The translations under genes were made by a program, and so were the position numbers. 44,072 nucleotides of DNA from Candidatus Zapsychrus exili (lineage in GTDB: Bacteria > Omnitrophota > Gorgyraeia > Zapsychrales > Zapsychraceae), in contig JAVCCJ010000061.1 of assembly GCA_030765585.1 (NCBI GenBank), forward strand, positions 1 through 44,072. Direction: 5' to 3'. Positions 13,791 to 25,256 of the stretch are shown here, one piece after another; position 1 is the stretch's first letter; each line of letters starts with the position of its first letter. The notes under the pieces were generated by a model. It made no database searches, had not been told where the DNA came from, and saw nothing but the letters and a program-made list of their open reading frames with translations.

Positions 13791-14411
13791 ATGACTATTA
13801 CACCTCAAACTACAGTAAGCAGCATTGAAGCTATCACCAGTTCAATAAGTACAGATCCTCATACTTACCGATGGTTTTATTTTCTCATATTTCAGCCTTC
13901 TTTAAAGAAAAAACTATGTTCAAAAGAAGATATAAACAAAATATATAAGAAATTAAAGAAAACTGTTCAAATACAAATGACGCTCTATATTTTTTCTATG
14001 CTTTTATTATGCTTTGCTTATGTTTCTAAACAATATTTATCTCTACTCACTCTTACCCTTTTTTTATATCCTCTAATAAAACTATATTTAGAAAAAAAGA
14101 GATGTGTGGTCGAGATTAGCAACCATATGCTAAGCCGCGATTTTGATACATCTGAAATTATTACAAAAACTCTTTATCAAATAACATCAATATACGGCAA
14201 GAAATATAAGATCCCTTGCTTGGTTGAAACAATTCATTTCTCAGATAATTTATGCAGAAAAGCTATTATTTTCACCTTTATCATTACTTGCTTTATTTAT
14301 CCATTCGACAGATTTTGGAAAATAATATTCTTTGTTTTATTTGTTTATTCCCTTATCTACCTTGTCACCAACACACATCTTGCATATAAATGCATAAAAC
14401 CAAAATTTTAA
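13791..14411 (+). CDS. Hypothetical membrane protein (~4 TM)
   Basis: 206-aa ORF with two pairs of hydrophobic segments; overlaps the convergent gene by 4 bp. Confidence 0.7.
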   Translation: MTITPQTTVSSIEAITSSISTDPHTYRWFYFLIFQPSLKKKLCSKEDINKIYKKLKKTVQIQMTLYIFSMLLLCFAYVSKQYLSLLTLTLFLYPLIKLYLEKKRCVVEISNHMLSRDFDTSEIITKTLYQITSIYGKKYKIPCLVETIHFSDNLCRKAIIFTFIITCFIYPFDRFWKIIFFVLFVYSLIYLVTNTHLAYKCIKPKF

Positions 14412-16327
14412 GAAGCCAGACTAAGAAAGATTCTTGCCGAAATATATACTATCGCCACCAAAGCAGCTATATTTCCAATTCGCGTAGCAGTCAAGAAAAG
14501 AACATTATTCACTACGTTATATAAATAAGACAACACGTACCTGTTCATATTTTTGTGCTTAAACACAATCTGTCCTAAAAAATAACTTCTCCAGTTAAGA
14601 TTCGTTATTCTATTTTCTCTTAACATATTATTGTAAAATGCTGAACCTGGAAGCGGAGTTATTAAAGAAACTGCCGTTACATCAGGTCTTAAATAAAAAC
14701 ACGATTTCCACAATTTAATCAAGTCTGAATATCTATCAGATTCAAAACCAAATATAAAATGAGCCTTTATATTGATTCCTGCCTTCCTAACTGCTTTTGT
14801 ATATTTTATATAATCATCTGCAAAATTAAACTTTCCTCCTTTAGCCTTTTCAAAAGAATCTCTAAATATCTCATAACCAAATAAAAGCATCTTACATCCG
14901 CTTTCTTTGGCTAAACGGATAGTATCTTCATCTTTTCCAATATCAATCGTACTTTGTGAAGCCCATTTAAGCTTCAAAGGCTTTAAAGCAGCAAATAATT
15001 CTTTTGCATAGGCAGGAGAGGAATAAATATTATTATCTAAAAATAAAAGAGACTTATATTTTGTTTTAATTCTTTTTGCAAACTCTATAACCTCATCAAT
15101 AGGCTTGTATCGTGGCTTTGATCCGCATAAAGAAGAGACAACGCAAAAGTCACAGCTAAACTTACATCCATGTACTGCCTCAAGACAATATCTTGCCTCC
15201 TCAATAGGAGCATTTAAAAGTTGCTGATGAACTTTCTTGTTAGATTCTTCCGACGGTCCACCAAAATATTTATCTTTTAAACAATCATTCTCATAATCCC
15301 TTATCACATCTTCCCAAACTCCTTCTGCCTCTCCAATTACTACACTATCGCAATACTCCAAAGCCTCGTCAGGCAGAAAAGTAACATGTGGCCCACCCAT
15401 AATAACCTTTGATCCTCGCGCCTTAAATCCCTTAGCAATGTTATACGCCTCATAAGCGTTAGACGTAAAGCACGTTATACATACCAGTTTGTCGCTATTA
15501 TAATACTGATCACGCCAAGTAACTTGAAGAAATCTACGTATCTTATAATCTTTTGGAGTTAAAGACTCTAGCACAAAGAAAGCTGGTGGATAAAAAAATA
15601 GTAAGGGAAACGCGATGCTATTTAAAATACCACCGTTTATTGGACTAACTAAATAAATCTCTTTTTTCGGATTAAACCTCTTTTTCAAATCATCATGCGC
15701 ATCTACCATTATATTTATAAAATATACAAATTCTAAAAGCTTAACATAAGTTAAAATAAAAAGTATAATCCTAAAGAAATAAAAATTCTTAATATGAAAT
15801 ACCTGCGGCAAATAGAACAAACACATATCTACCGTATAAATAGCAAGAATCGTTAAGAAAATCTTGAACCCTACAACTACTTTCTTTCTAGAAAGCCCCT
15901 CTTCTCTTAAATATTTACCTACAATAAAATTTGCCAACAAATACAAAACAACTACATTAAAATGAGCTCCTATAAAGAATGGCGACGGTAACATTTTAAT
16001 AGGAATCGTAATTGATAAAATTATATGCACAAACAAAGGAGCCAAAGTTAATAAGAAATAAAACCAAAAAAGTTTCCTAACATTAGTCTTACAACTTAAT
16101 ATCTTTGGTATAAACTCCTTTCTACTTGCGATATCAGCTAAAACACCATAAATTCCGCTTAATATAAAAACCTTTAAAATACTAAATAAAATAAGCACTA
16201 GCGCTGACATATTACTTTTAAATAAAAACATATATGTCGTATCAAGCATATACACACTAAATACAAAAATTAATATGCTATTTAAACTACCAAAGGATTT
16301 CTTTAAAATAAGATTATTACCTAACAT
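14408..16327 (-). CDS. Cobalamin-binding radical SAM enzyme with an N-terminal multi-TM domain
   Basis: First ~210 aa contain about 6 TM helices. B12-binding region ITCFTSNAYEAY...VIMGGPHVTFLPDEA...VVIGEAE, CxxxCxxC (CKFSCDFC), FLDNN, FIFG and TPLPGS motifs. Confidence 0.88.
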   Translation of the reverse strand: MLGNNLILKKSFGSLNSILIFVFSVYMLDTTYMFLFKSNMSALVLILFSILKVFILSGIYGVLADIASRKEFIPKILSCKTNVRKLFWFYFLLTLAPLFVHIILSITIPIKMLPSPFFIGAHFNVVVLYLLANFIVGKYLREEGLSRKKVVVGFKIFLTILAIYTVDMCLFYLPQVFHIKNFYFFRIILFILTYVKLLEFVYFINIMVDAHDDLKKRFNPKKEIYLVSPINGGILNSIAFPLLFFYPPAFFVLESLTPKDYKIRRFLQVTWRDQYYNSDKLVCITCFTSNAYEAYNIAKGFKARGSKVIMGGPHVTFLPDEALEYCDSVVIGEAEGVWEDVIRDYENDCLKDKYFGGPSEESNKKVHQQLLNAPIEEARYCLEAVHGCKFSCDFCVVSSLCGSKPRYKPIDEVIEFAKRIKTKYKSLLFLDNNIYSSPAYAKELFAALKPLKLKWASQSTIDIGKDEDTIRLAKESGCKMLLFGYEIFRDSFEKAKGGKFNFADDYIKYTKAVRKAGINIKAHFIFGFESDRYSDLIKLWKSCFYLRPDVTAVSLITPLPGSAFYNNMLRENRITNLNWRSYFLGQIVFKHKNMNRYVLSYLYNVVNNVLFLTATRIGNIAALVAIVYISARIFLSLAS

Positions 16328-16331
16328 AAAT

Positions 16332-16952
16332 TTATTCTAGACCTTGTTTATACTGTTCGTTGATTGTTTTATACTGCCCTTGGGTTAATAATTCTATTTG
16401 TTCGCGACGACTATCTTCAGTCTGCATCATTATTTGCTGTTGCTTAACAATTACATTCTTTAATGTGTCCTCAATAATTGCCCTAAAAATAGTCTCATTT
16501 ACAATTGGATGAATAATTGCATCAGCCTGAGCTTTGATATCTTTGTTAATTACAGATAAAGGCACTCTCTTGTCTTTTAATTGTTTATATTGATTAAGAC
16601 AATTTTGATACGCTTCTGCAATAATATTTAATATAGCTTCATTTCTTGTTGCTTGAATTACAATCTGTCCAAGAGCATAGCTTGCAAGCTCAGGGTTAAG
16701 CCCAATGTTTTGACTTGTTATTGCCTTCTGTAGAACTTCTTTTACCTTTTCTTCAAAAGCAAAATAAACTTCGTCCTGCACAAAATTACTTCTTTGATTA
16801 ATTGGATTAATTTTAAGCTGCATCTTTGGAGCAGATATTAAAGCTCCGGCTGAAGGCCCGCCAGACATCAAAACCCCAGAGTCTTGCGCAAATGTAATAG
16901 ACGAGATAATAATAGTTAAAATAATTAATATAAATATTAATAAATTTCTCAC
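16332..16952 (-). CDS. Hypothetical exported helical protein
   Basis: Sec signal ending in TFA-QD; tight 4-8 bp spacing with both neighbours. Confidence 0.75.
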   Translation of the reverse strand: MRNLLIFILIILTIIISSITFAQDSGVLMSGGPSAGALISAPKMQLKINPINQRSNFVQDEVYFAFEEKVKEVLQKAITSQNIGLNPELASYALGQIVIQATRNEAILNIIAEAYQNCLNQYKQLKDKRVPLSVINKDIKAQADAIIHPIVNETIFRAIIEDTLKNVIVKQQQIMMQTEDSRREQIELLTQGQYKTINEQYKQGLE

Positions 16953-16960
16953 AATTATTA

Positions 16961-17590
16961 TTATGAAACTTTTATATGTGTAGTCAAGGAAGGATTAAGA
17001 ATCTTGTCAGTTTTAATGAAGTCTTGAAGCTTGAAAGCTTTCTTGTCTAAAACAAGAGCTAGTATTTGCTCTATTTCATTTTTCTGATGAAGGTTAGGTA
17101 CAAACGTAGTACGAAATTGATACTTAATGCTAGAATTTTCTATTATGCTGATACTTTGTTTTATTCGAGCAAGATCAACATTACATCCAGCAAGCTTATT
17201 GTAATTTAGAAAACTTGCCTTTATGTCCATTGCAATAAAATTCAAAAGGCCTCGGTCTAATGCCTCTGTTATTACATCTGGATTGCTTCCATTCGTATCC
17301 AATTTAACTAAGAAACCTAAATCTTTTATTTTTTGTAAAAAAGGTATCAGATCGGATTGAATGGTGGGTTCACCACCGGTAACAACTACTGCCTGCAATT
17401 TGTCTACTCTACTTTTAAGAAATGTAAATACATCGTCTTCTAAAATAGTATCTCCAAATTGCTCTGACAAAACCAATTCTGGATTATGACAAAAAGGACA
17501 CCTAAAATTGCAGCCCTGCGTAAAAACAGTAGCTGCAATTTTGTTAGGATAATCAATTAAAGAGAGTTTTTGTAAACCACCTATGCGCAT
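16961..17590 (-). CDS. nrdG: Anaerobic ribonucleotide reductase activating enzyme
   Basis: SLIDYP...VFTQGCNFRCPFCHNP, TGGEPT and KLDTNG motifs; overlaps nrdD. Confidence 0.95.
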   Translation of the reverse strand: MRIGGLQKLSLIDYPNKIAATVFTQGCNFRCPFCHNPELVLSEQFGDTILEDDVFTFLKSRVDKLQAVVVTGGEPTIQSDLIPFLQKIKDLGFLVKLDTNGSNPDVITEALDRGLLNFIAMDIKASFLNYNKLAGCNVDLARIKQSISIIENSSIKYQFRTTFVPNLHQKNEIEQILALVLDKKAFKLQDFIKTDKILNPSLTTHIKVS

Positions 17591-19689
17591 AATTTATACG
17601 TTTTTCTTACCCTAAATTCTTCTTGCTTTCCTTTATTCCATTGCTGAACAGGGCGTAAGTATCCAACAACGCGAGAATAAACTTCACAAGTATTCTTACA
17701 TTTAGGACAGCTACTATGTTCTCCTGCAATATATCCACAGCTTGGACATACGCTAAAAGTAGGACTTATTGTAAAATAAGGCAAGTGATAATTAGAGCAA
17801 ACTGTCCTAATAAGCGACTTTAATGCCCCTACATCATCTATCTTCTCTCCGATAAATCCATGCAAGACAGTACCTCCTGTATACCTGGTCTGAAGTCCAT
17901 CCTGAAGATCTAAAACCTCAAAGATATCATCAGAATAATTTACGGGCAAATGAGTCGAGTTTGTGTAAAAAGGTTCTTTGCCTTTTTTGTACTCACTTTC
18001 ATTAGAGCATATAATATCTTTATACTGCTCCTTATCTAATTTTGCTAGTCGATAAGAAACGCCTTCGGCGGGAGTTGCCTCAAGATTATATATGTTTGAA
18101 GTCTCATCCTGATATTGTGCTAACGTATCGCGCATAAAATCAAGTACACGTTTAGAGAATTCTTGTCCTTCGTCTGATGCTATATTTTTACCCAAGAAAT
18201 TAAGACAAGCTTCATTCATTCCTATCAAACCAATTGTTGAAAAATGATTTTTCCAATACTGATTTGTTCTCTTTTTTATATTCCTTAAAAAGAATTTCAT
18301 ATAAGGATACAAATTCTCGTCGGTTAGTCTTTCCAATATTTTTCTTTTTATCTCAAGACTTTCTTTTGCAATTTCCATTTGATTTTCAACGCGCTTAAAA
18401 AAGTCTTCTTCATTTTCTGACAAATATCCTATCTTTGGCATATTAATAGTTGCAACACCAATTGAACCAGTTAAAGGAGATGATCCAAACAAACCTCCAC
18501 CTCGACTTCTTAGCTCCCTGTTATCAAGACGCAGTCTGCAACACATACTTCTAGCATCCTCTGGATCCATATCAGAATTAATAAAGTTAGAAAAATATGG
18601 AATACCGTATTTTGCTGTTACTTCCCACAACAAATCAAGATTTGGATTATCCCAATCAAAGTCTTTTATAATGTTATAAGTTGGAATTGGGAAAGTAAAT
18701 ACGCGTCCCTTCGCATCACCTTCAGACATTACCTCTAAAAATGCTTTATTAAACATATCCATTTCTGCCTGAAATTCTTTGTATGTTTCTTTTTGCAATT
18801 CACCACCTATCACAACGCTCTGGTCGGAAAAATACTGAGGCGGAGTTAAATCCATTGTAATATTTGTAAATGGTGTTTGAAAACCAACACGAGTTGGAAC
18901 ATTAATATTAAAAACAAAACCTTGCAATGCTTGCTTTAATTGCTTATAGGTAAGATTGTCATAACGAATAAAAGGTGCCAGCAGTGTATCAAAGTTCGAG
19001 AAAGCTTGTGCACCTGCTGCCTCACCCTGAAGCGTATAGAAAAAGTTTACAATTTGTCCTAACGCGCTTCTTAAATGTTTTCCTGGCTTAGACTCCATTT
19101 TTCCTTGAGCTCCTTGAAAACCACTGATAAGCAAATCGTGTAAATCCCATCCAACACAATAAACGCTAATAAGACCTAGATCATGAATATGGCAATCACC
19201 TTCTGCATGCGCATTCTTAATTCTAGGAGGATAAATTTTATTTAACCAATAAACTTTACTAATTTCAGATGATAAATATTGGTTCAAACCTTGAAGAGAA
19301 AAAGCCATATTGCTATTCTCATTTACCTTCCAATCTGCTCTTGTTAAATACTGATCAACTAAATCAACATTACTCTTAGATGTTATCTCTCTTATCTTTG
19401 TATGCTGATCACGATAAATAATATACGCTTTTGCTGTTTGTCTATATGGGGAAACCAAAAGAACTTCTTCTACTATATCTTGAACCTCTTCTACTGTTGG
19501 AACCTTGTCCTTAACCAATTGCTGAATTAAATTGACAACACGCATAGTAAGTTTTTGCGCTACTTCTTCTGAAAATTCATCTGTTGCCTGACCCGCCCTA
19601 AAAATAGCAGTAGCTATTTTCTGAGAATCAAAGTCTTCTGTAGAACCGTTTCTTTTGCAGATTTTGGTAAGGACTGAGGTGGTTTGCAT
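17581..19689 (-). CDS. nrdD: Class III anaerobic ribonucleoside-triphosphate reductase with ATP-cone
   Basis: N-terminal ATP-cone (KRNG...FD.QKI...VEEVQDIVE), YC and SMCCRL motifs, C-terminal CxxC..CxxC and glycyl-radical loop YSRVVGYLRPV. Confidence 0.97.
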   Translation of the reverse strand: MQTTSVLTKICKRNGSTEDFDSQKIATAIFRAGQATDEFSEEVAQKLTMRVVNLIQQLVKDKVPTVEEVQDIVEEVLLVSPYRQTAKAYIIYRDQHTKIREITSKSNVDLVDQYLTRADWKVNENSNMAFSLQGLNQYLSSEISKVYWLNKIYPPRIKNAHAEGDCHIHDLGLISVYCVGWDLHDLLISGFQGAQGKMESKPGKHLRSALGQIVNFFYTLQGEAAGAQAFSNFDTLLAPFIRYDNLTYKQLKQALQGFVFNINVPTRVGFQTPFTNITMDLTPPQYFSDQSVVIGGELQKETYKEFQAEMDMFNKAFLEVMSEGDAKGRVFTFPIPTYNIIKDFDWDNPNLDLLWEVTAKYGIPYFSNFINSDMDPEDARSMCCRLRLDNRELRSRGGGLFGSSPLTGSIGVATINMPKIGYLSENEEDFFKRVENQMEIAKESLEIKRKILERLTDENLYPYMKFFLRNIKKRTNQYWKNHFSTIGLIGMNEACLNFLGKNIASDEGQEFSKRVLDFMRDTLAQYQDETSNIYNLEATPAEGVSYRLAKLDKEQYKDIICSNESEYKKGKEPFYTNSTHLPVNYSDDIFEVLDLQDGLQTRYTGGTVLHGFIGEKIDDVGALKSLIRTVCSNYHLPYFTISPTFSVCPSCGYIAGEHSSCPKCKNTCEVYSRVVGYLRPVQQWNKGKQEEFRVRKTYKLCA

Positions 19690-19926: not shown

Positions 19927-21162
19927 ATGAAACGATATAAAATAATAAATACCTTATTTATTATTATCCTCCTAATTGGTATCTTAAGTAATTTTAAGTC
20001 ACCTAAAGAAATAATTTCTACAAATTCTTCAGATGCCTCGTCTTGCTCTCTAGTCTTTCCTGACGCTGATGAATTCATAAAAGAAACATCTAATCCGGCC
20101 TATTACAAAGCATACAAAATAAATCCAGAGACAAAAAGAAAAACTACAGCAGGAATTGTACTTTTAACAAAAGATACTGCCCCTGAAATCAAAGGCTATT
20201 CAGGGCCTATTAACATAGCAATAGGAATTAATTTAAATGGCGTTATCTCCAATGTAGCTATTGTATCTCACAGCGAAACGTCGTCTTATATTAAAGAAAT
20301 AAATAGTTTCTTAAGACAATTCAAGAATAAAAAAATAAAAGATTCATTTAAAATTGGAATCGACATTGATGCTATAAGCCGAGCAACAGTAACAAGCTCT
20401 GCCATTGCAAAGTCTGTGGCTGTAAGCATAAATAAGATATTTAACCTAAACGACGACCCTATCTTGACCGACGAGAGAATGAAAATAGATGAAATCGTAA
20501 TACCTCTGATATTATTTCTGCTAAGCATCTATGCTGTTATTTTAAAAAACAATAAATTACGACTGCTTTCTCTGTTTATAAGCTTTATCTATTTAGGTAT
20601 AATCAAAGCAAGCATGGTGTCTATCATACATATTGCAAATTTAAGCTTATTTAATCTGCCTAATTTTAATACAAGTATTCTTTGGTATTCGCTTATGACA
20701 CTAAATATTCTAACGCTTATCTTCTTTAAGAATGTTTATTGTCTAGGGGTTTGTCCTTTTGCAGCCGTAGAGAATGTAATAAGCAAAATAGCAAAATTTT
20801 TACATATCAAGCAGATGCATACATCGAGCAAAATTGATAAAAATGCGCGACTAATAAAATATGGTATTCTTCTTACATCCCTTATCATTGCTTTTTTATT
20901 TAAAAATTCTGATAATCTTAACTTCGAAGTGTTTATATTATTATTTACAAGAAATGCATCTTATCTAGGATGGGGCTTTGTTACAATCACCCTTATCGCT
21001 TGTGCTTTAAACTCAAGATTTTGGTGTAAATATTTCTGCCCTGTCGGAGCATTTAACAAAACAATACGAAGAATTATATCAGTTTCTTCTATTATGTCAT
21101 TCCTGCGCAGGCACGTAAAATCCCGTAGGGACCACGTCCCTTTACGGGCAGGAATCTCATGA
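19927..21162 (+). CDS. FMN-binding domain plus 4Fe-4S-binding membrane protein (NosR/NirI/YccM-like)
   Basis: KGYSGPI, HSET and IDAISRATVTS flavinylation-like motif; TM bundle with two CxxxCP motifs (CLGVCP, CKYFCP). Confidence 0.88.
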   Translation: MKRYKIINTLFIIILLIGILSNFKSPKEIISTNSSDASSCSLVFPDADEFIKETSNPAYYKAYKINPETKRKTTAGIVLLTKDTAPEIKGYSGPINIAIGINLNGVISNVAIVSHSETSSYIKEINSFLRQFKNKKIKDSFKIGIDIDAISRATVTSSAIAKSVAVSINKIFNLNDDPILTDERMKIDEIVIPLILFLLSIYAVILKNNKLRLLSLFISFIYLGIIKASMVSIIHIANLSLFNLPNFNTSILWYSLMTLNILTLIFFKNVYCLGVCPFAAVENVISKIAKFLHIKQMHTSSKIDKNARLIKYGILLTSLIIAFLFKNSDNLNFEVFILLFTRNASYLGWGFVTITLIACALNSRFWCKYFCPVGAFNKTIRRIISVSSIMSFLRRHVKSRRDHVPLRAGIS

Positions 21163-21212
21163 AAAACTAAAAACGGAAATCCCTGTCTCCGCTTCGCTCC
21201 ACAGGGATGACA
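21095..21212. repeat. GTCATTCC-type REP/RPE-like palindromic element with a nested 33-bp insert
   Basis: TGTCATTCCTG...CAGGGATGACA terminal inverted repeat; internal ATCCCTGT-ctccgcttcgctcc-ACAGGGAT hairpin; insert 21114-21146 flanked by GGCA repeats. Confidence 0.8.
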
Positions 21213-21219
21213 ACGATAT

Positions 21220-21441
21220 ATGAAAAATAAAAATAAAACATTCCTAATACTACTTATCTTGTCGTTAGCACTTCTACTTGCTACAATACTAGAAAATATG
21301 TTTACTCAGATGCCTGCTGCTCTACTGGATAAGAAAACTATCGCCATAGAAGCAGAAATTGATACATCAGAAATAAGAAATAAACTAAAAGAAGCTGGTA
21401 TAATCCCACATAATGCAAAATATTGGAGAAGGACAGACTAA
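21220..21441 (+). CDS. Small membrane-anchored protein ending in an AmrS N-terminus-like motif
   Basis: Basic N-terminus, one TM helix and C-terminal HNAKYWRR; TAATG stop/start overlap with amrS. Confidence 0.7.
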   Translation: MKNKNKTFLILLILSLALLLATILENMFTQMPAALLDKKTIAIEAEIDTSEIRNKLKEAGIIPHNAKYWRRTD

Positions 21442-22415
21442 TGAATACAGTTCAATGTGAACTATGCCCCAGAAGGTGTCGCCTTAAAAACGGAGAGCGT
21501 GGAAATTGTAGAGTAAGGATTAATCTAGACGGCGAACTTAAAAGTCTTGTATACGGCAATCCTTGTTCAATACATGTTGATCCTATCGAAAAGAAGCCTT
21601 TATATCATTTTCTTCCTACATCAACAGCACTATCAATTGCAACAGCAGGATGTAATCTGCACTGCAAATATTGTCAAAACTGGCAAATATCCCAAAGACC
21701 ACCTGAAGAATTACAAAACGAAAAACTTTCAACAAAAGACGTAGTAGACGCTGCCTTAAAAAATAACTGCAAAAGCATAGCCTATACTTATTCTGATCCA
21801 GTCGTATTTTATGAATACACACTTGAAACTTCAAAAGTAGCAAGACAATATAATATAAAAAATGTTCTAGTCACCGCTGCATACATAAATGAAAAACCTT
21901 TACTTGAACTTTGTAAATATACAGACGCTGCAAATATAGATTTAAAAGGTATTACTGAAGAATATTACAAAAATATGAGCGAAGCTACTTTAGCTCCCGT
22001 GCTTGCCGCAATTAAAATTATGCAAAAACAAGGTATTTGGATTGAACTTACTAATTTAATTGTGCCAACCTTTAATGATAATGAAAAGGATATAGCCAAT
22101 CTCTGTAAATGGATAATAGACAATGTGGGGCCAGATGTACCATTACACTTTTCTCGCTTTTGGCCAATGCACAAACTAAAAAATCTTTTTCCAACACCAG
22201 TTGAGACTTTAACCTTAGCACGAGATATAGCAAAACAGATTGGGATTAATCATGTCTACATAGGAAATGTTGGCGGAGAAGCTGGGAATGATACCCATTG
22301 CCCACAATGCAAGAAAACATTAATAAAAAGACGTGGGTATATGATACTTGAAAACAACATAACTAATAATCAATGTAAATTCTGTAAAAACAATATAGCT
22401 GGTATTTGGAACTAA
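21441..22415 (+). CDS. amrS: AmmeMemoRadiSam system radical SAM enzyme
   Basis: CELCPRRC...C.VR, DPIEKKPLYHFLP, GCNLHCKYCQNWQISQ, AYTYSDP, PLHFSRF.P, VYIGNV and CPQC..CKFC. ATG 21441 is preferred over TTG 21423. Confidence 0.93.
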   Translation: MNTVQCELCPRRCRLKNGERGNCRVRINLDGELKSLVYGNPCSIHVDPIEKKPLYHFLPTSTALSIATAGCNLHCKYCQNWQISQRPPEELQNEKLSTKDVVDAALKNNCKSIAYTYSDPVVFYEYTLETSKVARQYNIKNVLVTAAYINEKPLLELCKYTDAANIDLKGITEEYYKNMSEATLAPVLAAIKIMQKQGIWIELTNLIVPTFNDNEKDIANLCKWIIDNVGPDVPLHFSRFWPMHKLKNLFPTPVETLTLARDIAKQIGINHVYIGNVGGEAGNDTHCPQCKKTLIKRRGYMILENNITNNQCKFCKNNIAGIWN

Positions 22416-22425
22416 AGGAACTCTT

Positions 22426-22596
22426 ATGAACAATAAACAAATAACACGACGAAGCTTCTTAAAAATATTAGGCGGTGTCGTCTTATCATCCTTGTTGCTT
22501 CCCCTTAGCAAAACACTTCCATCATTTAGTGACACTAATAAAAAGAATTTAAAAGAAGCTAAATATTATAAAAGCAACGACAGCTTATTAGGATAA
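22426..22596 (+). CDS. 56-aa twin-arginine (Tat) signal peptide-bearing small protein, not in the ORF track
   Basis: Translated by hand: MNNKQITRRSFLKILGGVVLSSLLLPLSKTLPSFSDTNKKNLKEAKYYKSNDSLLG. Consensus TRRxFLK, AAGGA RBS, and it fills the gap between amrS and the next gene. Confidence 0.88.
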   Translation: MNNKQITRRSFLKILGGVVLSSLLLPLSKTLPSFSDTNKKNLKEAKYYKSNDSLLG

Positions 22597-22599
22597 AAT

Positions 22600-22935
22600 A
22601 TGCAATTTACAATAAAACTTATAATCACAATATCAATAATACTGTTCTGCTCTATCATAGGCAAAAAAATACCTACCCTATCTGGACTTATTGCAACCAT
22701 GCCTTTAACTGGTGCCATTGTTCTTATGTGGCTTTATTTTGACAACCCAGAAAATAAAACAATAGTACAGGGCTACACCAAAGGTGCAATCTGGGGGATT
22801 TTCCCAAGCATACTGTTTTTCATAACTGCATATTTCTGCTTCAAAAAACAAATACCTTTCAATATCACTATGATCTTAAGTTTTATAGTATGGATTATAG
22901 GAGCTTTCTTACATCAGCTATTTTTAAGAGGTTAA
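22600..22935 (+). CDS. DUF3147-like small 4-TM membrane protein
   Basis: KK.PTLSGLIATMPLT...WLY and G..PS..F motifs. Confidence 0.8.
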   Translation: MQFTIKLIITISIILFCSIIGKKIPTLSGLIATMPLTGAIVLMWLYFDNPENKTIVQGYTKGAIWGIFPSILFFITAYFCFKKQIPFNITMILSFIVWIIGAFLHQLFLRG

Positions 22936-22948
22936 AGCGGCGACCGCT

Positions 22949-25198
22949 TCACAACGAAGATCTAAAAAGAAGAATTAAAATCACGAAATTAATTAAAAAA
23001 CAAAATATTGCTATGCTACTTATACCTAAAATAGGTATCAAACACGTCGCTGTTACAATAGCACCCATCGCAGCACCCAACATATCAAAAGCATACAAAG
23101 TACCTGCAGACCTAGTATTTGAATAACGAGAACAGACCACATTACTACTAATTTCAAGGTCAGTCCCCAAATATACAGCTAAAGGATATTGCATACCTCC
23201 AATAAAACCTGCAATGATAGGTAAACTACTAAAAACAGTAGCAAAAATATGTGGGAAATTCTGTATAAATTCAACATCTCTAAATACAACAAAAAGCCAA
23301 GCAAGTAATAGTGGGTACAAACAAATACCTACTTGTATCATTTTATAAATCCTCAAAGCCTCTACCTTAGATATTTTATTGTCTAATATCTTATTTGCCC
23401 TAAAACTTCCTAGGACAAGACCAATCATAAAAAATGATATTATTAAGCCTATTTTATAATACGCATATCCGTAAAGCGCCTGAAAACTTAAAATAACTAT
23501 TATCTGAAATATAATCTCTGAGAATCCTGTTGTAAAAATAGATAAAGTAATCGGAGCTCTAGGTCTTCTTCTTATAAGAATAAGACCTATTCCTAACAAC
23601 AACGCAGGAAACAACAACAAATCCTTTAAACTTATATACTTTATTCTTTCTATAAAATTTCTAAATCCAGAATTAAAATGCGTCGAGAAAAGAACAATAT
23701 CATAAAGGTAGGCAATTGGTTTTGAATCCTTATTAATTGCACCCTTTACGCCTAAAGATCTATTAATATAAGAAACCCTATCTTCACTTAAGACAAACGG
23801 TAAATAATTCTCACTTACATATTTTGTTTCTATTTTTAATACTTCTAGTCTTCTCATTAGCTCTTCTGGATTTAAATCAAGAATAGCTCTTCTTTTACAT
23901 CCAAGAAATATATTTGTATCACCTGGCACTGATTTAACATCAACAAAAACCTCTCTTAAAGTTGAGTTTATTGACTGCAGGAACTCCTTAGCTTCTTTAT
24001 TTAAATAATTCTCTGAAGAAGATACGCTTAAAGTTATAATGCCCTCCTCTTTCAACGCCCTCGATGCTTCTCTAAAAAATTCAACCGTATAATATCTATT
24101 TATAAGGGCTGTATACGGATCAGATAAATTAATTATTATTACATCGTACTTGTCTTCACTTCTCTTAATAAAACGCCTTGCATCAGAATAAATAATATTA
24201 ACTCTTTTATTATCTAAAGACTTGAGGTTCTTTTCAGGCAAATACTTTCTTGAAATATCAATAATTGCTTTATCTAGCTCAACATAATCAATGTTTGCTT
24301 GCTTATATTTTAAAATTTCATCTGTGGAACCTGACAACCCACCTCCAACTAGCAAAACATTACGAGCGTAAGGATTTTGAAGCATAGAATAATGAACACT
24401 CTGTTCTGCAGTTAGCTCATCGCCTGTAGTAAAAGATAATAAACCATTTTCATATAAACTGTACTCTCCGTCTCTTTGGGTAAGCGCTATATTCCCATAA
24501 ACTGAATCTTCTATCCTTACAACATTTGTACCCTTAAACTGAATCTTTCGACTATATCTATCAGCCTTCCCCATAAAACTTAAAAGAACAACAGCCAATA
24601 CAAAAACAGCAACAAACATTGTCCTACTCTTCTTAAGAATTAATAAAATTACACATAAATTTATAATCCCTAAGATTACAGCCAGATACATAGAAGGTAC
24701 AAAATGTATTAGAACAAATGAAAAAATAATCCCTCCTGCTACAGCCCCAAGAGACTCCCACATATAAACGCCTGAAACACCAGAGAAGTTTTCATCTTCA
24801 CTGTATAACTTACATATAAGCACAAATAATCCGCCAAAAATAAATGTTAATGGCGCAAGCAAAAGAAATGCACCTATACTTATTGGAATAATTCCAATTA
24901 TCTCGCCTAATTGAAATCCCATTATCTGTTTAATACATCTGGCTAAGAATATCGTCGATGGTAATAGGAAGAATACATTTATCTGGAATACTGTGATGTA
25001 TTTTAAGGGATCTTTTATCTTCTTTGCAAAAATGCTAAAAACAAAACCTCCTATTGATATCCAAAAAAGCCAACTGGATAAAACAACAGCATAAGACGTT
25101 TCGTTTCCATAAAATGAAGTAATTAACTCACGCATAAGAACTATTTGCGCGATAATTGAGGTGAATCCTAAGATAAAGGCAAGGTATTTAGATTTCAT
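22949..25198 (-). CDS. Membrane-fused spermidine synthase-like (aminopropyltransferase/SAM-binding) protein
   Basis: TM domains flank DSVYGNI, VLLVGGG, VELD, DARRFI, YDVII.NLSDP and YYT.EFF. ATG 25198 is preferred because ATG 25213 lies inside the PFOR terminator stem. Confidence 0.88.
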   Translation of the reverse strand: MKSKYLAFILGFTSIIAQIVLMRELITSFYGNETSYAVVLSSWLFWISIGGFVFSIFAKKIKDPLKYITVFQINVFFLLPSTIFLARCIKQIMGFQLGEIIGIIPISIGAFLLLAPLTFIFGGLFVLICKLYSEDENFSGVSGVYMWESLGAVAGGIIFSFVLIHFVPSMYLAVILGIINLCVILLILKKSRTMFVAVFVLAVVLLSFMGKADRYSRKIQFKGTNVVRIEDSVYGNIALTQRDGEYSLYENGLLSFTTGDELTAEQSVHYSMLQNPYARNVLLVGGGLSGSTDEILKYKQANIDYVELDKAIIDISRKYLPEKNLKSLDNKRVNIIYSDARRFIKRSEDKYDVIIINLSDPYTALINRYYTVEFFREASRALKEEGIITLSVSSSENYLNKEAKEFLQSINSTLREVFVDVKSVPGDTNIFLGCKRRAILDLNPEELMRRLEVLKIETKYVSENYLPFVLSEDRVSYINRSLGVKGAINKDSKPIAYLYDIVLFSTHFNSGFRNFIERIKYISLKDLLLFPALLLGIGLILIRRRPRAPITLSIFTTGFSEIIFQIIVILSFQALYGYAYYKIGLIISFFMIGLVLGSFRANKILDNKISKVEALRIYKMIQVGICLYPLLLAWLFVVFRDVEFIQNFPHIFATVFSSLPIIAGFIGGMQYPLAVYLGTDLEISSNVVCSRYSNTRSAGTLYAFDMLGAAMGAIVTATCLIPILGISSIAIFCFLINFVILILLFRSSL

Positions 25199-25201
25199 AT
25201 G

Positions 25202-25256
25202 AAAAAACCTCATCCCACGCCAAAAGTAAACTTTACTTCAAACGTGGAATGAGGTC
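25202..25256 (-). terminator. Rho-independent terminator of the PFOR gene
   Basis: Minus strand reads ACCTCATTCCACGTTTGAAGTAAA-G-TTTACTTTTGGCGTGGGATGAGGT followed by a T-run. Confidence 0.82.

Follow-up and report, generated by a model that had tools for sequence, protein, structure and literature searches.

The AMMECR1 and MEMO1 parts of the AmmeMemoRadiSam system have human homologues, and radical SAM chemistry is regarded as cytoplasmic. The system (AmrS, TIGR04337; AmrA/AMMECR1, TIGR04335; AmrB/Memo, TIGR04336) was described by Balaji and Aravind (2007, PMC2034487), and in the excerpts of that paper used here RNA base modification was suggested from gene context and a radical was suggested on the AmrA Cys. 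Hitchhiker export through the Tat pathway, with the hydrogenase small subunit, formate dehydrogenase and Tat heterodimers as described cases, is treated in the sections used of PMC10924467. NapH-like flavinylated systems of extracytosolic electron transfer, whose FMN-binding domains are extracytosolic and whose described partners are reductases and oxidases, are treated in those used of PMC8238504 (Meheust et al. 2021), in the main text of which the term "radical SAM" is absent. A split or exported AmrS was described nowhere in the open-access literature searched (the gene-cluster table of PMC8238504, which may list such loci, lay outside the search), and no paper on a periplasmic radical SAM enzyme was found in the open-access literature.

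Here, a 44,072-nt stretch of DNA from Candidatus Zapsychrus exili (hereafter, the window) was analysed. Like the described AmmeMemoRadiSam systems, it encodes an AmrS that passes TIGR04337, and the genome encodes AmrA and AmrB as one fusion. Unlike them, the window AmrS is without its first segment, copies of which come from two small genes, its associations include an FMN/Fe-S carrier and a membrane protein of SpeE type, and its partners bear export leaders. Judged by its genes, the window system appears to be a variant of the known AmmeMemoRadiSam system with an unusual proposed export mechanism.

Organization of the amrS locus

The amrS gene (positions 21441 to 22415, forward strand) encodes an AmrS-type radical SAM enzyme of 324 aa without leader and first segment. 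The ORF begins with MNTVQCELCP, the first CxxC following five residues on, and its product scored 383 bits against TIGR04337 (curated cut-off, 220); residue 3 aligned to profile position 11, so that about 10 profile positions are absent at the N-terminus. The cysteines form three clusters (C6/C9/C13/C23; the CxxxCxxC motif, C71/C75/C78; and C287/C290/C312/C315), and the first seven of them were kept in all AmrS groups. This enzyme was the sole AmrS match in the whole genome (G000); its closest named homologues belonged to Candidatus Omnitrophota, and nearly all of the top ~120 homologues were 322-341 aa long. Its structure was predicted with a pLDDT of 94.8, and the closest solved fold to the core was that of the PFL-activating enzyme (PFL-AE, PDB 3cb8; E 1.8e-14, 15% identity), no solved AmrS structure being found by sequence search. 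Unlike PFL-AE, AmrS has extra Cys-rich N- and C-terminal domains, and it scored far below the PFL-AE cut-off.

The ORF upstream of amrS (21220 to 21441, forward strand) encodes a protein of 73 aa, hereafter the dock, with one TM segment (approximately residues 7-25), a linker, a helix and a G-x-x-P-x-N-A-K-Y-W tail; it ends in PHNAKYWRRTD, and its stop codon overlaps the ATG of amrS (TAATG). The ORF downstream (22426 to 22596, forward strand), which has its own ribosome-binding-like AAGGA, encodes a Tat peptide of 56 aa, hereafter the escort, with a TRRSFLK signal (TAT_signal, E 0.005, below cut-off), a hydrophobic region, KEAKYY and a C-terminal LLG, the C-terminal end reading LKEAKYYKSNDSLLG. 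The start of AmrS, both small ORFs, their tails and the TAATG overlap had been reported in a sequence-only reading of the window and were all confirmed. Family searches with both small proteins returned nothing above any cut-off.

That reading had also named a (K/H)EAx(Y/F)(Y/W) segment just before the first CxxC of AmrS proteins, which proved true of the leader-bearing AmrS clade, whose members carry a Sec or Tat leader and this segment ahead of the first CxxC. Over 109 aligned N-termini of that clade, chosen for an aromatic pair at matching distance from the Cys, the motif columns were K/H/R, E (78), A (108), x, Y/F and Y/W. Among the loci collected from the 144 of 301 phylum genomes with an AmrS match at E 1e-105 or better, nearly all the non-short ones showed a leader followed by (K/H)EAx(Y/F)(Y/W)xKL and then, after a turn, the VxC that holds the first cysteine. 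When a profile of the 109 N-termini was run against 7545 ORF tails of the genome (background mean -12.5, sd 4.9), the escort ORF ranked first with 13.8 bits and the dock ORF joint second with 11.5 bits, tied with an unrelated 44-aa ORF. By profile-profile comparison, the dock tail matched the N-terminus of fused AmrS at E 0.0004 (probability 35%), and the escort tail matched the N-terminal segment of fused AmrS at E 0.0018, both over 14-17 columns, a length at which low probabilities are expected; the two tails matched each other at E 1e-5. On these comparisons, the segment that AmrS should carry before its first CxxC is missing from the enzyme and found in the neighbouring ORFs, and the leader and first segment, in cis in relatives, are encoded here as two separate small proteins.

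Conservation of the split

A search for the three-gene arrangement in other genomes had been proposed, and 17 relatives of 17 genera were obtained among 41 genomes searched (AmrS 58-69% identical). AmrS was short and the Tat gene was present in 17 of 17, and the upstream motif was present in 16; the locus of the remaining relative lies 286 nt from a contig end. Across 64 loci, the motif and the first Cys codon were separated by between 20 and 226 nt, and each of the three frames was represented (40/18/6). The sequence-only reading had named two findings that would speak against it, namely an extra base near 21425 fusing the 73-aa ORF to AmrS and a Tat peptide not conserved beside amrS. The peptide is conserved there, and a contig from run X2 (another sample and study than X1; contig depth, 2.7) spans 21241-21662 with no mismatches and no gaps. 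At the level of sequence, the split was judged real and conserved.

Distribution of split and fused AmrS

Of 242 distinct AmrS, 239 were classed, as short (109), with leader and motif (119), or with motif and without leader (11). The short AmrS, tallied by hand with the labels of 13 loci set by hand from the tails, comprised 59 with both small genes, 25 whose Tat peptide has no motif (type B), 8 with a motif-bearing Tat peptide and no adjacent dock, 8 with the dock only, 3 with neither, and 6 cut by a contig end. The counts omit L255, which lies at a contig edge, L062 and L202, which have an internal stop and a body of <250 aa, the second AmrS of L162, and duplicates by identical body (e.g. 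L141 = L079). A free Tat peptide followed 92 of the 104 short AmrS with enough downstream DNA (hand tally) and none of the 122 AmrS carrying their own motif. Natural fusions included Sec leader, motif and AmrS; Tat leader, motif and AmrS; and carrier, TM, motif and AmrS (773 aa, L019). The named records belonged to Omnitrophota, Gammaproteobacteria (Sedimenticola, Chromatiaceae), Elusimicrobia, Lentisphaerae/Victivallales, Planctomycetes and Zixiibacteriota. In a FastTree phylogeny of 239 rows, which did not decide between split and fused ancestry, the short forms fell into three or four groups, and the window AmrS lay inside a 61-row group of short forms (support 97).

Two of the 8 dock-only loci had Tat signal and motif fused to an AmrBA-like ORF. 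At L127 and L092, the Tat signal and motif run in frame into an AmrBA-like ORF after amrS (597 and 553 aa), which is either a true fusion or a lost stop. Five genomes in which the locus is dock-only or bare were searched for an escort at other sites, which gave weak matches only (E at least 0.09, with a weak query), one of which was a dock-like gene in G187, and the others looked like chance. In L098, L133, L135 and L136 (Zixiibacteriota and relatives), a short AmrS whose C-terminal tail is longer is accompanied by the dock only, the escort being sought and not found; TatC was present in the tested genomes of this group. At L084, L095, L100 and other type-B loci, the short AmrS is followed by a second, motif-less Tat-peptide family (YPG..k.l...gkW.G), which occurs in Lentisphaerae, Planctomycetes and others.

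TatC was found in the genomes of all 29 short Omnitrophota loci and of 22 of the 24 Tat-fused loci; the count was 17 of 89 for Sec-fused loci and 0 of 3 for carrier-fused ones. Rows in this comparison are loci with non-independent kin, and a single Sec label was subsequently reassigned to Tat; the baseline was 153 of 301 genomes overall. In the order to which the window belongs, TatC was missing from a single family (0 of 4), in which the carrier fusion takes the place of the split. Genome G000 encodes TatC, two TatA/B proteins and ApbE. In L162 (G236:C29), G257, G107, G137 and G079, tatC lies within a few kb of a Tat-led amrS, and G236 has two Tat-led amrS in tandem. A large AmrS clade bears Sec-type leaders (e.g. 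L046, L049, L140, L149), with TatC not found for 72 of 89 loci. Sec-led AmrS in TatC-negative genomes implies Fe-S loading outside the cytoplasm, or another route, and since loading outside would be possible, the need for Tat is weakened.

The Tat peptide and its modelled complex with AmrS

A twin-arginine-type signal was present in 87 of 88 Tat peptides (RRx[FL] in 73, RK/KR-type in 14), and 83 of the 88 ended in [LWIM]xG. As in Tat hitchhiker export, the partner has a twin-arginine signal and AmrS has none, the signal HMM matches being below cut-off. The 25 type-B peptides are without the motif, yet the C-terminal (L/W)xG is kept, and strand donation is therefore not required for the escort function. 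In two crude scans, passed by 6 of 7545 and 12 of 6084 ORFs and in which the choice of start codon could hide others, the escort was the only ORF of the genome with a canonical S/T-R-R-x-F-L-K signal, and it is possibly the only Tat substrate of this cell. When the Tat peptide was searched in the Atlas, the clusters matched at 0.92-0.93 were unnamed and those of Tat-signal type scored 0.90 or less; both serve as leads only. The small Tat peptides near formate dehydrogenase (TIGR02811) and the gamma subunit of FAD-glucose dehydrogenase are presumably analogous to the escort; TIGR02811 gave no match to it, and no paper on the latter analogy was found.

A complex of AmrS with Tat-peptide residues 25-56 was modelled with a score of 0.86, the best of 3 controls scoring 0.00; the mark applied lets through 116 of 157 solved pairs and 2 of 215 mismatched ones, rates that are approximate for the alignments used here. 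Contact agreement between runs was at least 79%, and partner pLDDT was at least 56. Peptide residues 42-52 contacted AmrS residues 2-8, 26-39, 124-128 and 150-156, with the Tyr pair at AmrS 4-8 and K43-A45 at 33-35, which is the place expected for the cis segment; the C-terminal LLG lay outside the confidently placed residues. When a naturally fused AmrS was modelled, the segment was ordered within the fold (pLDDT 97, residues 11-20), with a bridge at R-E and a strand that starts at the second Tyr and directly precedes the strand with the first Cys, their pairing being deduced from secondary structure. In the complex model, KEAKYY of the Tat peptide, the partner modelled, lay on the N-terminal strand of AmrS, the position that had been proposed for AKYY/W. 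The pair are halves of a split gene, and because the model can have learnt fused AmrS from sequences, the pass shows likeness more than binding.

Short and fused AmrS differed in H74 (94% vs 5%) and D119 (76% vs 3%), both of which are near the cluster in short AmrS, and F22 and Y34 were lost in the short forms; residue 34 falls inside the modelled peptide site.

The dock and the membrane electron carrier

Upstream of the dock lies a gene for a NosR/NapH-like membrane electron carrier (19927 to 21162, forward strand; Pfam FMN_bind and Fer4_5), with an N-terminal TM segment, an FMN-binding domain (DAISRAT at 148), more TM segments and two CxxxCP motifs; matches to the NosR, RnfG and NapH families were below cut-off. 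The features of NapH-like flavinylated systems were present, namely an FMN-binding domain, PF12801, TM segments and ApbE in the genome, the flavinylation motif being the variant SRAT. A carrier homologue was found in 24 of 28 long-flank loci with both small genes, and in many relatives the dock is fused to the C-terminus of the carrier. At L016, L018 and L037, the motif ends a protein consisting of one N-terminal TM segment and an FMN-binding domain with no further TM, and because such FMN-binding domains are extracytosolic in the sections used of PMC8238504, the dock motif would face outward. At type-B loci, the dock motif ends a giant SpeE/carrier protein, or follows it directly, in 14 of the 17 cases that retain at least 4.6 kb of downstream DNA. 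When the dock was sought in 5 escort-only genomes, it was found only in G244, at the carrier gene and ~5 kb from amrS; the matches inspected in G067, G089, G143 and G071 were unrelated proteins. These gene arrangements refine the sequence-only reading, in that the upstream motif appears to belong with the FMN/Fe-S carrier as an outward-facing dock, and a dock facing outward can meet only AmrS that is already exported.

A palindromic genomic repeat with 27 other blastn matches in the genome (21095 to 21160, noted also as 21095-21215; no strand) occupies the end of the carrier gene and is not part of the system. The window carrier is without the C-terminal ferredoxin-type Cys motifs present in L002, L005, L008 and others, and the repeat may have truncated it.

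Partners and neighbouring genes

AmrA and AmrB had been noted as missing from the window, and this was confirmed: the only matches in the genome were in one 504-aa AmrB-AmrA fusion on contig C69, not adjacent to amrS, which carries a Sec-like leader. AmrA/AmrB adjoin amrS at 17 of 28 and 20 of 25 loci of relatives, and a hydrophobic leader was present on AmrB(A) in 28 of 29 cases found beside a short AmrS, as in G000. In L032:1408-2922, the AmrA half keeps the conserved RGCIG Gly-Cys motif. As AmrS has a fold like that of PFL-AE, its activation target could be AmrA, which is speculation.

Downstream of the escort, a DUF3147/GlpM-like 4-TM protein (22600 to 22935, forward strand) is a local passenger, with a homologue at 0 of 108 other loci searched. 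The convergent gene that follows (22949 to 25213, reverse strand) encodes a membrane spermidine-synthase-like, SAM-binding protein, a recurrent neighbour of the leader-bearing AmrS clade; homologues occurred at 22 of 28 dock-and-escort and 18 of 25 type-B loci, at all 7 Tat-fused loci and at 10 of the 24 Sec-fused ones. This SpeE-like protein is a candidate for supplying SAM outside. Elsewhere in the window (14408-19689, reverse strand), nrdD-nrdG is followed downstream by two genes, one for a B12-binding radical SAM protein of 639 aa and an unannotated one of 206 aa.

Discussion

The proposal of the sequence-only reading that AmrS receives its segment in trans is supported, and AmrS is most likely exported piggy-back by the Tat peptide; the co-occurrence of the genes, the TatC link, the natural fusions and the complex model all speak in favour. 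The companion proposal, that the two small genes are interchangeable adaptors of which AmrS uses either one, probably does not hold, and sequential roles as escort and then dock fit. We consider it somewhat probable that a split AmrS is exported under Tat escort and then docked beside the carrier. Signal-less AmrS would be made, and its Fe-S/metal sites loaded, in the cytoplasm. The Tat peptide would then bind AmrS by placing KEAKYY in the vacant N-terminal site, with its C-terminal (L/W)xG probably serving as a second grip, and AmrS would be carried through Tat as a hitchhiker. At the outer face, AmrS would bind the identical segment shown by the 73-aa membrane protein, and since this dock belongs with the FMN/Fe-S carrier, AmrS would be held beside its reductant. 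The exported enzyme would work with the separately encoded, Sec-exported AmrB-AmrA. The order most likely runs, as we infer, from escort to dock, with the donated segment being swapped. More tentatively, the locus may hold an outer-face radical SAM enzyme powered by a transmembrane flavin/Fe-S wire, with a relay of the segment from escort to dock not described for Tat.

Donor-strand complementation and exchange are familiar from chaperone-usher pili, in which an incomplete fold is completed by a segment of an escort and then by that of a partner. The putative exchange at the present locus differs from it in concerning unrelated proteins and an unrelated fold, Tat instead of Sec, and an enzyme instead of a polymer. 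As with the Tat hitchhikers in the sections used of PMC10924467, an Fe-S protein without a signal is proposed to cross together with a partner bearing the twin arginines; unlike in those cases, the partner is a 56-aa peptide with no cofactor domain, made of part of the fold of the passenger itself, and the same part would be offered outside by a second protein. With the NapH-like systems, to the extent covered by the sections used of PMC8238504, the locus shares an FMN-binding domain and PF12801 membrane protein, ApbE, and a modular pairing with outer-face enzymes.

It is unlikely that the two small proteins are either/or adaptors, or that the Tat peptide is a permanent anchor and the TM protein binds a second pool of AmrS with no handover. 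Both tails do match one segment, in some genomes with the Tat peptide the dock was not found, and no AxA site was evident by eye after the hydrophobic region of the peptide, as a permanent anchor would have it; however, an outward dock that tracks the carrier needs prior export, and where the Tat peptides are motif-less (type B), the dock is the only motif found. The peptides were also suggested to be substrates of AmrS, the Tat peptide being modified, for example, at its C-terminal Gly. The closest fold, 3cb8, is indeed a glycyl-radical activase with a peptide, nearly all Tat peptides keep the terminal glycine, and short AmrS have residues of their own near the cluster. This idea is nevertheless quite improbable, because the motif is the enzyme's own segment and because a RiPP precursor or glycyl-radical substrate would be present throughout the family, whereas no fused AmrS has an adjacent peptide (0 of 122) despite the same cysteines and partners; the peptide was, in addition, modelled on the N-terminal domain, with the position of the unplaced LLG being uncertain. 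Very unlikely, too, is an AmrS that stays in the cytoplasm, tethered by the TM protein to the inner face near the Fe-S sites of the carrier, with the Tat peptide as a regulator or sink: it would accord with the cytoplasmic synthesis of SAM, with the accepted location of radical SAM enzymes and with the dock-only loci, but not with the outward fused dock, the leaders on AmrBA and the leaders on the fused AmrS of the clade. Finally, although one extra base in the window would fuse the frames, a sequencing error joining the 73-aa ORF and amrS was ruled out, and a pseudogene or programmed frameshift (recoding) rejected as highly improbable, on the evidence of the X2 contig and the conserved split with its variable spacing and frame, as well as the nearly uniform length of the ~120 homologues.

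If AmrS is indeed escorted through Tat and docked at the outer face, this location would argue, as do the export leaders on its partners, against an RNA substrate and the suggested RNA modification for this clade, and would point to envelope substrates. A portable escort of this minimal kind, serving an Fe-S enzyme without a signal, would, if true, be new to the biology of Tat and might be put to use in the export of folded metalloenzymes. The split form also offers a handle on the AmmeMemoRadiSam system, in the form of a 56-aa gene and two arginines.
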